A stretch of DNA of 54,525 bases from a virus. The position numbers and the translations under genes were made by a program. This document shows positions 30,161 to 36,452 of this stretch, piece after piece (position 1 is the stretch's first letter; each line of letters begins with the position of its first letter). The stretch lies in the UHGV virus genome UHGV-0179380, one strand, 5' to 3'. Under the pieces are notes generated by a model that worked only from the letters and a program-made list of their open reading frames with translations, was not told the origin of the DNA and did not search any database.

Positions 30161-30188
30161 CAAAGCAAAAACCCGGCGCGGTGCCGGG
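30161..30188 (-). terminator. tR'-like terminator immediately upstream of holin
   Basis: cccggcaccgcgccggg hairpin followed by tttttgctttgtt on minus strand. Confidence 0.65.
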
Positions 30189-30251
30189 TAATTACAATTT
30201 CGCATTGTTAGGAAATATTTTAATCTATTTGTTTTTTATGCGCGATTATGG

Positions 30252-30449
30252 TTACAAATCACCAACCTTGCGCCAGTATCTATGATTAACCATCGTGATA
30301 ACTTCTTTCGCTGTCATAGGTAAAAATGGCTCATGCCACCGATCAAGACTACCGAGGCGCATCAAAACGTGCTCACCTTCGAGGCGGTAATAAGCTCGCG
30401 TAGCCAATGACTGATAAACGCCATCATATTCATGGTCGCTATTTCCCAT
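30252..30449 (-). CDS. hypothetical protein
   Basis: 65-aa ORF, first of small-ORF island upstream of lysis cassette. Confidence 0.4.
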   Translation of the reverse strand: MGNSDHEYDGVYQSLATRAYYRLEGEHVLMRLGSLDRWHEPFLPMTAKEVITMVNHRYWRKVGDL

Positions 30450-30705
30450 TTTTACGCTCCTTAATGGCTCGCCTGATTTGCTCTGCCGTAGCGTCGAAGA
30501 AAGCGATAAAAACAGTCACAGGCCAAAAAGGAATCTCAAGTCCACCAGGTTCGGCACCGCTAAACTTAATAAAACATGACATCAGGATCGCGCCAGCGAT
30601 ATAAAGCAAAACAATCACAGCTATAAGGCATTCAATCATCTTCACCCCCAAGATCGTGATAAATATCGTTAGGGTCTTCACCATGTTCCTCGCAAAAACG
30701 CTCAA
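30439..30705 (-). CDS. small membrane protein
   Basis: two hydrophobic segments; start uncertain. Confidence 0.4.
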   Translation of the reverse strand: MSVFARNMVKTLTIFITILGVKMIECLIAVIVLLYIAGAILMSCFIKFSGAEPGGLEIPFWPVTVFIAFFDATAEQIRRAIKERKNGK

Positions 30706-30763
30706 ATAGCGCCCAATTTTCAGAAAGAAACATGATTAATAAATTTTTATACCACTCTTCCAT

Positions 30764-31018
30764 TTAATCATCCTCATCGTTTTCATGTTCAGCCAGGAAC
30801 TCATCAATCACTCGGTAAGTTACTGGCGGGATGTATTCGAAATCATCAGAATCAAGATCAAGCGTCCGGCTGTCGCCGTCGTCGTCCAGCGTATTCATCC
30901 CTAACTCACCAAAAGGGCCGTATCCAATGTGGCCCAGGTATTCGCAACCAATCGTAAAGCCATGATATTCTCCTTTACACCGGATTTTGTAAGGTCTATT
31001 TGATGCGCTCAATTTCAA
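30764..31018 (-). CDS. hypothetical acidic protein
   Basis: 84 aa; strongly acidic C-terminal half (DDDGDSRTLDLDSDDFEY...EHENDEDD). Confidence 0.45.
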   Translation of the reverse strand: MKLSASNRPYKIRCKGEYHGFTIGCEYLGHIGYGPFGELGMNTLDDDGDSRTLDLDSDDFEYIPPVTYRVIDEFLAEHENDEDD

Positions 31019-31319
31019 TTCCCCCTTCTTCTCCTTCAGTCATTTTGTATTCTGCAGCCAGTTCAGCCCCAACCAATTCAACATCAATTTCACCTATTCC
31101 AGGGAACGCCAGATAGGCAAAAATAAGGCTTTTAATTCTATTCAGGTCTTCAAGATGGTCTGCATTAAAAGGCGGTTCAGTTACATGGAAGCATTTAACG
31201 TGCGTGTCGTCTTCAGTGGCTACACGGAAACATGCGCCAGGTTGTCCGGCGAATTGTCCTAATCTTTCCTCGTTCTGGAGAGTTCCACGGAAAACTTTAA
31301 CGCTGATAAATTTAGACAT
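30996..31319 (-). CDS. hypothetical protein
   Basis: 107-aa ORF. Confidence 0.45.
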   Translation of the reverse strand: MSKFISVKVFRGTLQNEERLGQFAGQPGACFRVATEDDTHVKCFHVTEPPFNADHLEDLNRIKSLIFAYLAFPGIGEIDVELVGAELAAEYKMTEGEEGGIEIERIK

Positions 31320-31342
31320 TTGCTATTCTCCTTTGTAAGAAA

Positions 31343-34075: not shown

Positions 34076-34431
34076 GATTTATCCCCGTAAATTTTGAATA
34101 ATTCCCGCGCTTCCTGATCTTCGAATAGCTTCATATGCAGATCATGCAGGCGGCGCATTGTGCGGAAGCGTGGCCTGAATTCCTGGCTACGTTTAATGTA
34201 CTTACCGCCAATTGAGTAAATATACCCGTATGAGTACCATCTATTCCCTACCCATATTTCATATTCCTTTCCTTCGTAATTGAATTTTATCGTTAGCTCG
34301 CCTACTTCAACTATTAACCCTTTGTCAATAATGTCGTTAAGCATTTCGTCCCATTCTTTGAGGAATGGTTGTTGATAAAAGCCAAAAAGCGTATTTACAG
34401 CATGACAGAGATAATCAATGATTATTTGCAT
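34066..34431 (-). CDS. hypothetical protein
   Basis: 121-aa ORF. Confidence 0.45.
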   Translation of the reverse strand: MQIIIDYLCHAVNTLFGFYQQPFLKEWDEMLNDIIDKGLIVEVGELTIKFNYEGKEYEIWVGNRWYSYGYIYSIGGKYIKRSQEFRPRFRTMRRLHDLHMKLFEDQEARELFKIYGDKSWS

Positions 34432-34435
34432 ATTA

Positions 34436-34636
34436 TCACCACATCATATAATAAACGTTGTCATCAGCTAATTCGTCGGCGTCTCTTTGGCATTCGATTG
34501 TTGCGTCGTCTTCGTGCCATTCTTTTGCGAATAAACGCGCCCATTTACGACGCTCACGCTTATTGCGTCGCAGGTCATCAAAAACCATCAAAGCCTTGTC
34601 GTAAGCTCTTACCATGCGTTTCATTCTACTTTTCAT
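34436..34636 (-). CDS. hypothetical basic protein
   Basis: 66-aa ORF, Arg/Lys-rich. Confidence 0.4.
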   Translation of the reverse strand: MKSRMKRMVRAYDKALMVFDDLRRNKRERRKWARLFAKEWHEDDATIECQRDADELADDNVYYMMW

Positions 34637-34974
34637 TTTTCACCTCTTAGCATCCAATTCACATCACATTTAATTGCGAATACCTTAACAGGATCAGGGC
34701 CGAACAACGGGTGTATGATTGTTTTCACTTCATAGCCAAAATAAGGTAGGTCTATAATCCGGTGCTCTTCGTGTCCTGCCGGATAACCCCATTTAATGAA
34801 CAAACGTTCATATTCCCGACCTTCCAAGCGCTTGCGCCAATAGTCATTATAAAGCCGGTATTCCTCAACCTTTTTCCCTGCACGGATAGCGTGAAAGTAT
34901 TCTCCTTTTAAATTCAGATGCAGGTCTTTACTTGCCATCGCTATGATCCTGTAAACAGTCGTTATAGCCTTCAA
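34633..34974 (-). CDS. possible ASCH-domain protein
   Basis: segment IRAGKKVEEYR matches the GxKxxExR signature; start uncertain. Confidence 0.4.
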   Translation of the reverse strand: MKAITTVYRIIAMASKDLHLNLKGEYFHAIRAGKKVEEYRLYNDYWRKRLEGREYERLFIKWGYPAGHEEHRIIDLPYFGYEVKTIIHPLFGPDPVKVFAIKCDVNWMLRGEK

Positions 34975-35197
34975 TGTATCCGGTTAATCCAGTGTTACTA
35001 ACTGACCAGTCAGCCGAACGGCGCTTGATGGCCTTGTCCATATTCATTTCGTCACCTGGGCCGCCTGGCTCAATGTATTTTCTTAAATCCCTTGCTATCC
35101 ACGCCCTTAATTGTTGCGTATCACTGCACAAACGCGCGGATAACGTCAGGTCATTAACCAGCTTTGCAAATAGATGTTCTTTTAATTTAGGCTTCAT
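34928..35197 (-). CDS. hypothetical protein
   Basis: start trimmed to MKPKLKEH. Confidence 0.35.
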   Translation of the reverse strand: MKPKLKEHLFAKLVNDLTLSARLCSDTQQLRAWIARDLRKYIEPGGPGDEMNMDKAIKRRSADWSVSNTGLTGYIEGYNDCLQDHSDGK

Positions 35198-35534
35198 CGT
35201 CGTCACCATCGAAATACTGCTCAATCGCACGTTTGACGTTCATTTCACGCTGATAATTGTTATCGCTATAGATTGCTGCTGCCGATACGTGATCGATAAT
35301 TTGCTGTAATAAATCAGGATGAATTTTTATTTTTTCATCAAGGACAATGCGCGATGGCTTAGGTGCAGTGGCTACATCATAAACGATTTCTATCTCACCA
35401 CGCCCGCCGCAGCGAGGACAAACGAATTTATCACCTTGATACAGTATGAAGCCGCAACCTTTTTCAGTTTTTACGACCATGCCATCTTCGTCGCAGTTTT
35501 CGCAATACAGCCACCCAATATTAAGTATTTTCAT
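35187..35534 (-). CDS. zinc-ribbon protein
   Basis: CENC...CPRCGGRG cysteine pairs; start trimmed to MKILNIGW. Confidence 0.4.
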   Translation of the reverse strand: MKILNIGWLYCENCDEDGMVVKTEKGCGFILYQGDKFVCPRCGGRGEIEIVYDVATAPKPSRIVLDEKIKIHPDLLQQIIDHVSAAAIYSDNNYQREMNVKRAIEQYFDGDDDEA

Positions 35535-35727
35535 TGTCGTTACTCCGTCCATAAATGTGAACAGGTTCAATTGGCACGGCAGGTAATTCGCCTTCGTTTA
35601 ATGCGCTTGCCATGCCTAATATTAAACGCGCTTCTGTACCAGTAACTTTCTTACACCATGCACCGCCCGTTTTATCTTCGAACAAGATAACAGCGAACTG
35701 ATCGTTTATTTCCAGCTTATCCATCAT
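35521..35727 (-). CDS. hypothetical protein
   Basis: 68-aa ORF coupled to Q-like gene. Confidence 0.4.
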   Translation of the reverse strand: MMDKLEINDQFAVILFEDKTGGAWCKKVTGTEARLILGMASALNEGELPAVPIEPVHIYGRSNDNENT

Positions 35728-36452
35728 TCACCCCGCGTAACTCGTTTGATCTCGCTTTCCGCGCGGGCCTCTTCTTTGAATAGCTCCGCTATGGCGTCCT
35801 CATAAAAAACCCGGTATTTTTTCCACCATGTTGATCGGCTCACCGGAAAAACAAGCTGATTAACCGCCTGCCGGACAAGATCTACAGGGAAACGCGAGTA
35901 CCCGCGCCCGCCGCAGTGCTGGCACGTTTTGAATACTGGCATTTCCGCCGCTTCGCTGGCTGTTTTATCCGGTACTTCGCCGCGCCCCTTGCACCGCTGG
36001 CAATGATTTTTAACGTAGCCTTTGCCGCCGCACCGTGCGCAAATTGTTGATGCGTATTCGCATTCAGGGTGCGGTAAAAGCCCGTTACCGCAGCACTTAG
36101 GGCAAACCTTTTCGGTCGCCGCACTTTGGCAATAATCCCGAAACGCGAAAACGGCAACAAGAATAATAAGATCATTGCGTTGTTCTTCATTTAATTCCAT
36201 CACGTATTCGTAATCTTTTGCCATAGCTCTTAAACGCTCTGTAAGCAAAACTACGGCCCTGTGTTTTTCGGCTTGTGATAGCTCCATCTTCCCCAAAAAA
36301 GCGCTGTAACCAAGCTCTACGCGCGACTGTGCCATACCCGCAGCGGTTAGCGCATCCGTTGTATTAAGCGCATCCGGTGACGTGCCCCGGCTTTCATCTG
36401 ACAATCGCGGCGATTTGGGGAAGTGGAATTTTAGAATGGATTCTAAATTCAT
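35724..36452 (-). CDS. putative late antiterminator (Q-like) with four CxxCxGxG zinc-finger repeats
   Basis: 242 aa; CPKCCGNG, CARCGGKG, CQRCKGRG, CQHCGGRG; directly after RusA/NinG as Q is in lambdoid phages. Confidence 0.4.
   Translation of the reverse strand: MNLESILKFHFPKSPRLSDESRGTSPDALNTTDALTAAGMAQSRVELGYSAFLGKMELSQAEKHRAVVLLTERLRAMAKDYEYVMELNEEQRNDLIILVAVFAFRDYCQSAATEKVCPKCCGNGLLPHPECEYASTICARCGGKGYVKNHCQRCKGRGEVPDKTASEAAEMPVFKTCQHCGGRGYSRFPVDLVRQAVNQLVFPVSRSTWWKKYRVFYEDAIAELFKEEARAESEIKRVTRGE

Follow-up and report, generated by a model that had tools for sequence, protein, structure and literature searches.

The viral genome UHGV-0179380, analysed as one stretch of 54,525 nucleotides (nt; the window), encodes a homologue of the lambda antiterminator Q whose predicted target, immediately before the holin gene, is 5.5 kb away from the Q gene. 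An island of 22 small genes stands between the two. Sequence comparison suggests that this is probably a lambda-type Q switch in which gene and target are separated by a hypervariable early accessory region. The components are ordinary, and the split arrangement of Q and its target is what departs from the described unit, a cassette of the Q gene and an adjacent transcription unit (PMC9388147). The window belongs to the mEpimmI (mEp021) group of Escherichia coli phages; the region concerned was 86-89% identical, in a mosaic fashion, to MagusPhagus, mEp010, mEp044, mEp554, mEp013, mEp021 and mEp515. The group, with mEp021 as archetype, is described in the available text of Negrete-Mendez et al. 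2025 (PMC11893012) as non-lambdoid temperate coliphages, Nus-dependent and of human fecal origin. All relevant genes are on the minus strand, in the 5' to 3' order methyltransferase, NinF, NinG, RusA, a short open reading frame (ORF), Q, small ORFs, terminator and holin (Table 1). This order is common to the window and the group, and Q is followed by small ORFs, a predicted terminator and the holin in every sequenced mEpimmI member. The island mosaic of the window is unlike that of each sequenced phage.

A preliminary description of this DNA had placed a 242 amino acid (aa) protein with four CxxCxGxG repeats after NinG and RusA and had called it Q-like. The protein was present there with the motifs CPKCCGNG, CARCGGKG, CQRCKGRG and CQHCGGRG, and the resemblance proved to be full-length homology to lambda Q. 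The match to Pfam Antiterm (PF03589) had an E value of 2.6e-30 and a score of 104.8 bits, against a cut-off of 26.7. A phmmer comparison with the lambda Q structure 7UBM gave an E value of 2.3e-36 and covered residues 1-114 and 150-240, with residues 1-114 aligned without gaps to residues 1-114 of lambda Q (87 bits). By tblastn the protein was 32-33% identical to the Q proteins of lambda (33%), HK97 and P22 with 99% of its length covered. The nearest relatives outside the group were in Bp96115/SE1Spa (38%) and ES18 (35.5%). The zinc ligands C118, C121, C144 and C147 (lambda numbering) and many N-terminal residues were invariant in an alignment of 15 diverse family members. The ratio of nonsynonymous to synonymous polymorphism (pN/pS) of the Q gene was 0.09, indicating strong purifying selection. 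By these comparisons the 242-aa protein is a genuine member of the lambda Q family.

Lambda Q uses its helix-turn-helix body and zinc arm to bind a 13-bp element in the promoter spacer, meets sigma-containing polymerase paused at a -10-like element, and has an N terminus that, together with NusA, refolds to form a nozzle at the RNA-exit channel (Yin et al. 2022, PMC9388147). All three parts, the helix-turn-helix body, the zinc arm and the N-terminal nozzle segment, are recognisable in the sequence of window Q. The zinc arm of window Q contains a 35-residue insertion relative to lambda Q (36004-36108, Q residues 115-149) and forms a DnaJ-like four-motif module, probably binding two zinc ions. 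The extra zinc-binding pair also occurs in the ES18/SE1Spa type and in many prophage Q proteins but is not found in lambda Q. Because the lambda arm touches sigma region 4 and, in the Q-binding element, positions 11-13, a longer arm may alter the geometry of the site.

The 105-bp gap upstream of the holin is laid out like a late control region of the lambda type. On the minus strand the module runs from 30245 to 30161 as TCGCGC ATAAAAAACAAATAGAT TAAAAT ATTTCC TAACAAT GCGAAATTGTAATTA CCCGGC ACCGC GCCGGG TTTTTGCTTTG. The -10 hexamer TAAAAT is followed after 6 nt by the pause-like TAACAAT (30222-30204) and about 20 nt further by a terminator. The preliminary description had offered a late promoter just upstream of this terminator, within 30189-30251, as one of two options; the conserved -10 TAAAAT and TAACAAT found there make it the best fit to the sequence. 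The promoter spacer contains the motif AAACAAA-N-AGAT, which is present in all haplotypes of the module and in locus L113, a phage with a Q only 70% identical, and which we infer to be a candidate Q-binding element. In lambda, transcription starts at the first A of AACGAT. With the start placed likewise in the window, transcription is predicted to begin at 30210/30209, to pause near 30194-30192 and to release RNA near 30167-30162. The pause element would then occupy about +1 to +6, the terminator hairpin would begin at about +22, and the leader RNA would be about 45 nt long.

The pause element also forms one arm of an inverted repeat (ACAAT...ATTGT, 30191-30210), as it does in relatives. In lambda (L008, 1602-1626, CAACGA...TCGTTG) and ES18 (L010, 1742-1767, TAACA...TGTTA) the partner lies about 12-25 nt downstream, and prophages have AACGA...TCGTT; the repeat was seen in the lambda-family late promoters inspected by eye. 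We know of no assigned function for it. A 5' leader hairpin formed by ACAAT and ATTGT was considered and rejected, as it is without co-variation support and a common T-to-C variant in the group breaks one pair.

The tR'-like terminator that had been reported at 30161-30188 was confirmed at these positions and folds strongly. The stem CCCGGC/GCCGGG spans 30188-30172, extended by the scan tool to 30189-30171 through an A-T closing pair, the loop is 5 nt and the tail TTTTTGCTTTG ends at 30161. The terminator is located 14 nt before the holin ribosome-binding site GGAGG, with the holin ATG at 30146. The leader fold has an energy of -21.4 kcal/mol (z = -3.7 against shuffles). The hairpin at 30189-30171 was the best coding-strand terminator of the region. 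Terminator-like hits as a class were not enriched there (14 found, 10.3 expected), and the holin-proximal hairpin stands apart from the others by quality, position and conservation. A terminator is annotated at this site in mEp021, mEp010, mEp013, mEp044 and mEp515. In the available text of PMC11893012 t1, t2 and t5 are called experimentally demonstrated terminators. The numbering t1-t5 fits TERM_1-5 of the mEp021 GenBank record, which suggests that the demonstrated t5 is the terminator before the holin. An intrinsic terminator is thus found between the pause element and the late genes, as in a Q-dependent cassette.

Downstream of the terminator are a class II holin, an endolysin and an Rz-type spanin. 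A further ORF within 29063-29275 (minus strand), embedded in another frame of Rz, has a lipoprotein signal (…LIAVLSGC…) with an LSGC lipobox; the lysis cassette appears complete because this ORF looks like an Rz1-type outer-membrane spanin. The coding strand of the late virion-gene region contains, at 20036-20064 (minus), a very strong intrinsic terminator with the sequence TCCCCGGCGCGATGCCGGGGA and then T8; late transcription past it would need processive antitermination.

Each of the 52 mEpimmI-type loci that reach far enough contained a single copy of the module, 2.0-6.8 kb downstream of Q, with 34 distinct module haplotypes among them. The blocks GATTAAAATA and CTAACAATGCGAAA and the terminator stem were invariant in the 34 haplotypes, as were the -10 hexamer and a 14-nt block containing TAACAAT. 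The variable positions fell in the 6-nt discriminator, in the terminator loop and upstream of about -26. Nucleotide diversity from the -10 hexamer through the GCGAAA after the pause element was 0.037, compared to a synonymous divergence of 0.16-0.54 in the flanking genes. The module is retained where the holin is swapped (L022, L041 and L113), and the last island gene that precedes it is of at least four unrelated kinds. In L113 the stop codon of the last island gene lies inside the module (GATTAA). Among 5,426 complete E. coli genomes 35 contained the module, once each. In a scan of viral contigs it was found in mEpimmI-type contigs only, apart from three chance matches with no terminator or lysis genes.

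The order of elements in the window is that of the lambda Q/pR'-qut-tR' cassette of lambda, P22-like phages, ES18, SE1Spa and enterobacterial prophages, with which the window shares the Q family over its full length: a -10 hexamer, a gap of 5-7 nt, an AAC-R-N-T pause element at the transcript start, a terminator and the lysis genes. The window (-10 TAAAAT, gap atttcc, pause element TAACAAT) was compared with lambda and g341c (TAAATT, tgactc, AACGAT), ES18 (TAATAT, cgtttc, TAACAGT), SE1Spa (TATCAT, aaccc, TAACAGT) and a lambdoid prophage with a Q 41% identical (TACCCT, ggca, TAACGAT). An intrinsic terminator follows in each. The same signature or a one-base variant was found in six further phages (of Klebsiella, Erwinia, Proteus, Edwardsiella and Salmonella, and a Shiga toxin (Stx) 2c phage), and the -10-to-pause spacing of the window is that of lambda, ES18, SE1Spa and about 40 other systems. 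The terminator starts 25-60 nt after the pause element in most comparison systems, so a leader of about 45 nt is short yet within the family range. It is nevertheless the shortest seen, most relatives having about 55-65 nt and lambda 194 nt.

The window differs from these systems in distance. The signature or a one-base variant lay 12-67 nt past the Q stop codon in 11 of 11 diverse phages and in about 31 Enterobacterales prophages, and at 177 nt in one prophage with a truncated Q gene. It lay exactly 65 nt past the stop in all 62 scorable lambda-type viral contigs; these came from a profile-based locus search that returned only contigs with a lambda-identical Q and were used for spacing only. 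In the window the Q stop is at 35724 and the -10 at 30222, with 5.5 kb and 22 genes between them where the lambda-type promoter adjoins Q. The Q stop overlaps the start of the next gene in the mEpimmI group, and the DNA after Q contains no conserved promoter/pause signature and no non-coding space. With the module 2.0-6.8 kb from Q here and within about 177 nt elsewhere, the cassette is split.

The preliminary description had counted about 21 small ORFs between Q and the terminator. The island was there, with 22. All 22 ORFs had pN/pS values of 0.07-0.38 against homologues in related phages; being under purifying selection, they are real genes. Most matched PHROG families with no known function, no convincing Pfam or NCBIfam match was obtained for the island proteins, and one ORF (35187-35570) has a zinc-ribbon motif. 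The 52 related loci contained 47 distinct islands of 2.0-6.8 kb, the island of mEp021 being 2.0 kb. A universal core of about 6-8 genes, at about 32703-34075, is flanked by variable segments, and PHROG and NCBIfam searches gave no DNA-binding signature for any core gene. One core gene corresponds to mEp021 gp41, which is reported in the available text of PMC11893012 to have been detected in virions by mass spectrometry and is likened there to RegA. Rfam and tRNA scans over the whole window gave no match.

The DNA right after Q differs among group members with the same Q, including the viable phage mEp021. In a relative with a Q 45% identical (L115, 9188-9415) a Lar restriction-alleviation domain is encoded by the gene that directly follows Q, and the island of L113 contains a PAPS-reductase-like gene (15058-15813). 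Such genes may be a sign that early functions in anti-restriction or DNA modification accumulate at the position after Q.

The sole sizeable gap inside the island contains a conserved non-coding element (32145-32207, minus), also present in L003, L005, L012, L013, L017 and others, 21 of 54 loci in all. It consists of a CRP-like palindrome, a 15-bp hairpin ACAAAAUGGCAUUGU/GCAGUGCCAUUUUGU (-20.5 kcal/mol, z -5.3) and TATAAA. Several relatives have the perfect palindrome TGTGA-N6-TCACA, and the window has the degenerate GTGATCTACTCCGCA; in relatives the CRP-like site is centred about 60.5 bp upstream of the start inferred from the TATAAA/TATATA hexamer. A terminator is annotated at the element in mEp010, mEp044 and mEp554. 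It could be an internal terminator, a CRP-dependent promoter of the distal island genes, or both. A second terminator-like hairpin with a T-run, AAGCGGGATAAAACCCGCTT TTTTGT (33797-33816, minus; -19 kcal/mol, z -4.4), lies in the first codons of the universal island gene 33601-33834; mEp554 and mEp515 have a terminator annotated there. It would have to be read through by early polymerase. On the opposite strand to the island genes a GC-rich terminator-like hairpin, ATGGGGCCATCCGGCCCCGT GTTTTATTCT (31663-31692, plus), overlaps the start codon of ORF 31343-31672.

The mEpimmI phages encode an N-like antiterminator, Gp17, acting at nutL, nutR1 and nutR2, of which nutR2 is just 3' of the cytosine methyltransferase gene (available text of PMC11893012). 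In the window the corresponding position holds the boxA-like TGCTCTTTAAAAA. We take this stretch (37893-37881) to match 12 of the 13 bases of rrn boxA; it is followed by a small hairpin with an A-rich loop. From NinF through Q to the last island gene the genes are on one strand with mostly overlapping starts and stops, downstream of a nut site, as in a nin-like region. The island is therefore most likely, on gene layout, the tail of the N-like-antiterminated early operon. Its continuity with NinF-NinG-RusA-Q and its place after nutR2 and before the predicted late promoter suggest delayed-early expression, with or just after Q and independent of it. The NinG coding sequence itself contains a terminator-like hairpin with T8 (37591-37609, minus), for which five relatives carry a terminator annotation.

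The island resembles the lambda nin region in its small, co-oriented, overlapping and dispensable-looking genes, its mosaic structure and its apparent place in an N-antiterminated right operon, and homologues of NinF, NinG and RusA lie just upstream of it. The nin region, however, lies before Q and the island after it, and no island gene matches a known Nin protein. Shiga-toxin phages likewise have a multi-kb variable segment (stx, tRNAs, nanS-p) between Q and the holin. In those phages pR'/tR' adjoin Q and the cargo is downstream of the late promoter and Q-dependent, whereas in the window the only conserved pR'-type module is at the holin end, downstream of the island, so that cargo upstream of it should be early and Q-independent.

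Table 1. Features of the late control region, lysis genes, island and upstream operon in the window.
Feature	Coordinates	Strand	Basis or remark
Rz-type spanin	28995..29483	-	Pfam Phage_lysis, E 1e-24
Endolysin (lysozyme)	29453..29944	-	Pfam Phage_lysozyme, E 6e-44; start 29944 inferred from 163-aa homologues
Class II holin, first late gene	29946..30146	-	Pfam Phage_holin_2_3, E 1.8e-14
Intrinsic terminator, tR'-like (= mEp021 TERM_5, probably t5)	30161..30189	-	Scan, fold, annotation in relatives
Predicted sigma70-dependent pause element TAACAAT (-10-like AACAAT)	30204..30210	-	GCGAAA follows; both invariant in 34 haplotypes
Predicted pR' -10 hexamer TAAAAT	30217..30222	-	Invariant in 52/52 loci; position matches lambda and relatives
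Candidate Q-binding element AAACAAATAGAT	30234-30223	-	In promoter spacer; conserved in the group
Upstream half of predicted late promoter	30223..30245	-	-35 position TCGCGC (30245-30240), 17-nt spacer
Island of 22 small co-oriented genes, 43-127 aa	30252..35727	-	Mostly overlapping or abutting; first overlaps Q stop (ATGA)
Island core gene, mEp021 gp41 homologue	33157..33372	-	93% identical to mEp021_41
Q antiterminator gene, 242 aa	35724..36452	-	Lambda-Q family; 35-residue insertion with second CxxCxGxG pair
Short ORF (61-71 aa) between RusA and Q	36452-36667	-	
RusA	36618-37037	-	Pfam, E 2e-15
NinG	37034-37729	-	Pfam, E 1e-66
NinF-size ORF	between boxA stretch and NinG	-	
boxA-like TGCTCTTTAAAAA	37881..37893	-	nutR2 position of Gp17 system; upstream of NinF, NinG, RusA, Q and island
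Cytosine methyltransferase	38098-38754	-	

Put together, the proposed mechanism is as follows. The 242-aa protein would be a conventional lambda-family Q acting at the 105-bp gap upstream of the holin, through a sigma70 promoter, the pause element, the spacer Q-binding element AAACAAATAGAT and the terminator. In the absence of Q, polymerase starting in the gap would produce only the short leader of about 45 nt. Once present, Q would modify the paused polymerase, which would then pass this terminator and others further on, such as 20064-20036, and transcribe the lysis and virion genes. As the target site lies away from the Q gene, Q would have to reach it in trans across 5.5 kb, or 2.0-6.8 kb in relatives. 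The 22 island genes would not be downstream of the late promoter. They would form the distal end of the rightward early operon, antiterminated by Gp17 from nutR2 upstream of NinF, as a hypervariable accessory region analogous to nin and expressed with or just after Q. The terminator would also serve as the end of the early operon.

Several observations weigh against this mechanism. The -35 position TCGCGC is poor at 17 bp and the window allele has no extended -10, so the window promoter is weak by consensus, and its -35 is poor compared to those of lambda-type cassettes. The commoner -35 allele of the group, TTGTAG or TTGTGG at 17 bp, matches just three of six bases. A consensus sigma70 scan of 28.5-38.5 kb was uninformative on this point: it returned 13 promoter-like sites, fewer than in shuffles (18.2), and picked up nothing on the coding strand in the neighbourhood of either Q or the holin. 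The bare pattern of a -10 with AACRRT 5-8 nt downstream occurred four times in the window against 2.8 expected. It was dropped as stand-alone evidence and, because the pattern is not rare, the argument relies on where the module lies, how well it is conserved and its homologous layout. Only about 5 nt separate the pause site (+16/17) from the terminator stem, a closer spacing than in any relative examined. The hairpin and CRP-like site at 32145-32207 could mean that the distal island is served by a promoter or terminator of its own. The module is carried by one fairly close phage group only, so hitch-hiking with a recombination junction could account for part of the conservation. When more distant phages of the same architecture were sought, to see whether Q and its site co-vary, L113 had the same module, a contig with a Q 45% identical ended before its holin, and a genome-wide scan for distant split architectures returned only classical adjacent cassettes, with Q at most 41% identical.

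The poor -35 and the commonness of the bare pattern would also suit a scheme in which the hairpin is solely the terminator of the early right operon (t5), the -10/TAACAAT pair is coincidental, Q is redundant or acts elsewhere, and the late genes are switched on mainly through read-through by Gp17-modified polymerase. In the mEpimmI phages a third nut site, nutR2, is just upstream of the segment, and t5 is listed as a demonstrated terminator in the early antitermination work (both in the available text of PMC11893012). This scheme is rather unlikely. Q is under strong purifying selection (pN/pS 0.09) and retains the nozzle segment and all zinc ligands, the -10 and the 14-nt TAACAAT block are invariant beside synonymous sites that diverge by 16-54%, and the module outlasts replacement of both flanks. 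The roles of early terminator and late switch are also compatible; in lambda, too, N-modified polymerase reaches the late region at a low level. The constancy of this module is what is left unexplained if the island is late-transcribed cargo, the other option of the preliminary description. In a stx-like arrangement of this kind, late promoter and Q-loading site would sit in the 3' end of Q or within the first island gene, and the Q-modified polymerase that transcribes the island would override the holin hairpin as one terminator among others. Such a layout would agree with every other lambda-type system examined, where pR' directly follows Q. Promoters can overlap coding sequence, as the last island gene of L113 ending inside the module illustrates, and a relaxed search found a weak look-alike, TAAGCT-N7-AACGAT, at 35719, 5 nt past the Q stop. 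The look-alike lies in the codons E-I-N-D, varies at the -10, has no terminator downstream and is missing from mEp021, mEp515, mEp044, L016, L018 and L113, which have the same or a related Q. It was set aside as a coding coincidence. As no non-coding DNA or conserved promoter/pause signature follows Q, late cargo is disfavoured and we consider it unlikely.

The weak -35 could equally mean that the promoter in 30189-30251 depends on an activator. The preliminary description had allowed for an unidentified regulator. This might be an island protein, with the Q homologue uninvolved; 22 island proteins have no known function, and one has the zinc-ribbon motif. Such a regulator is unnecessary, as the window already encodes a lambda-family Q and has, 5.5 kb away, a predicted Q-loading site of the lambda type, and the module has the particular architecture that Q proteins of that family use. 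The island is hypervariable (47 versions, 2.0 kb in mEp021) whereas the module is constant, and none of the few universal core genes has a DNA-binding signature. Control by an island protein is therefore very improbable. A poor chance, if a better one, is given to a variant of the preferred mechanism in which the module is a promoter-distal Q-loading station on the long early transcript and not, or not only, an independent promoter. Polymerases of the Gp17 operon would be recaptured by sigma70 at TAAAAT/TAACAAT, would pause there and would exchange N-type for Q-type antitermination; the missing -35 of the window allele is in line with this. Late transcription would in that case extend the early transcript in a regulated way, and the length of the island would set the delay between Q synthesis and arrival at the switch.

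The textbook Q switch is one unit and was found as such in every other system sampled, whereas here it is split by 2-7 kb of fast-changing small genes. The mEpimmI phages are reported to equal lambdoid phages in frequency in human faeces. If the split switch is real, it provides a natural test of the reach of lambda-type Q in trans; older genetics reported a partial cis preference of lambda Q. The leader of about 45 nt would be the shortest among the lambda-type systems sampled and would probe how soon after loading Q suppresses a hairpin. The island would be early and not late, the timing expected of host-takeover or anti-defence genes and the opposite of Stx-type cargo. The assignment would also supply the missing late-control element of the mEpimmI group. 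In the available text of PMC11893012 the 242-aa-type protein is named Q-lambda-like, the location of the late promoter is not given, no Q-loading site is placed, and the separation of Q from the lysis genes is not remarked on.

One minor observation concerns a close relative, the prophage of E. coli 09-00049 (L124). A 457-aa gene at 12920-14293 is named 'anti-CBASS protein Acb1 family protein' in RefSeq. It is located in the head-morphogenesis cluster between the DNA-packaging and minor head protein genes, where a portal gene is expected.

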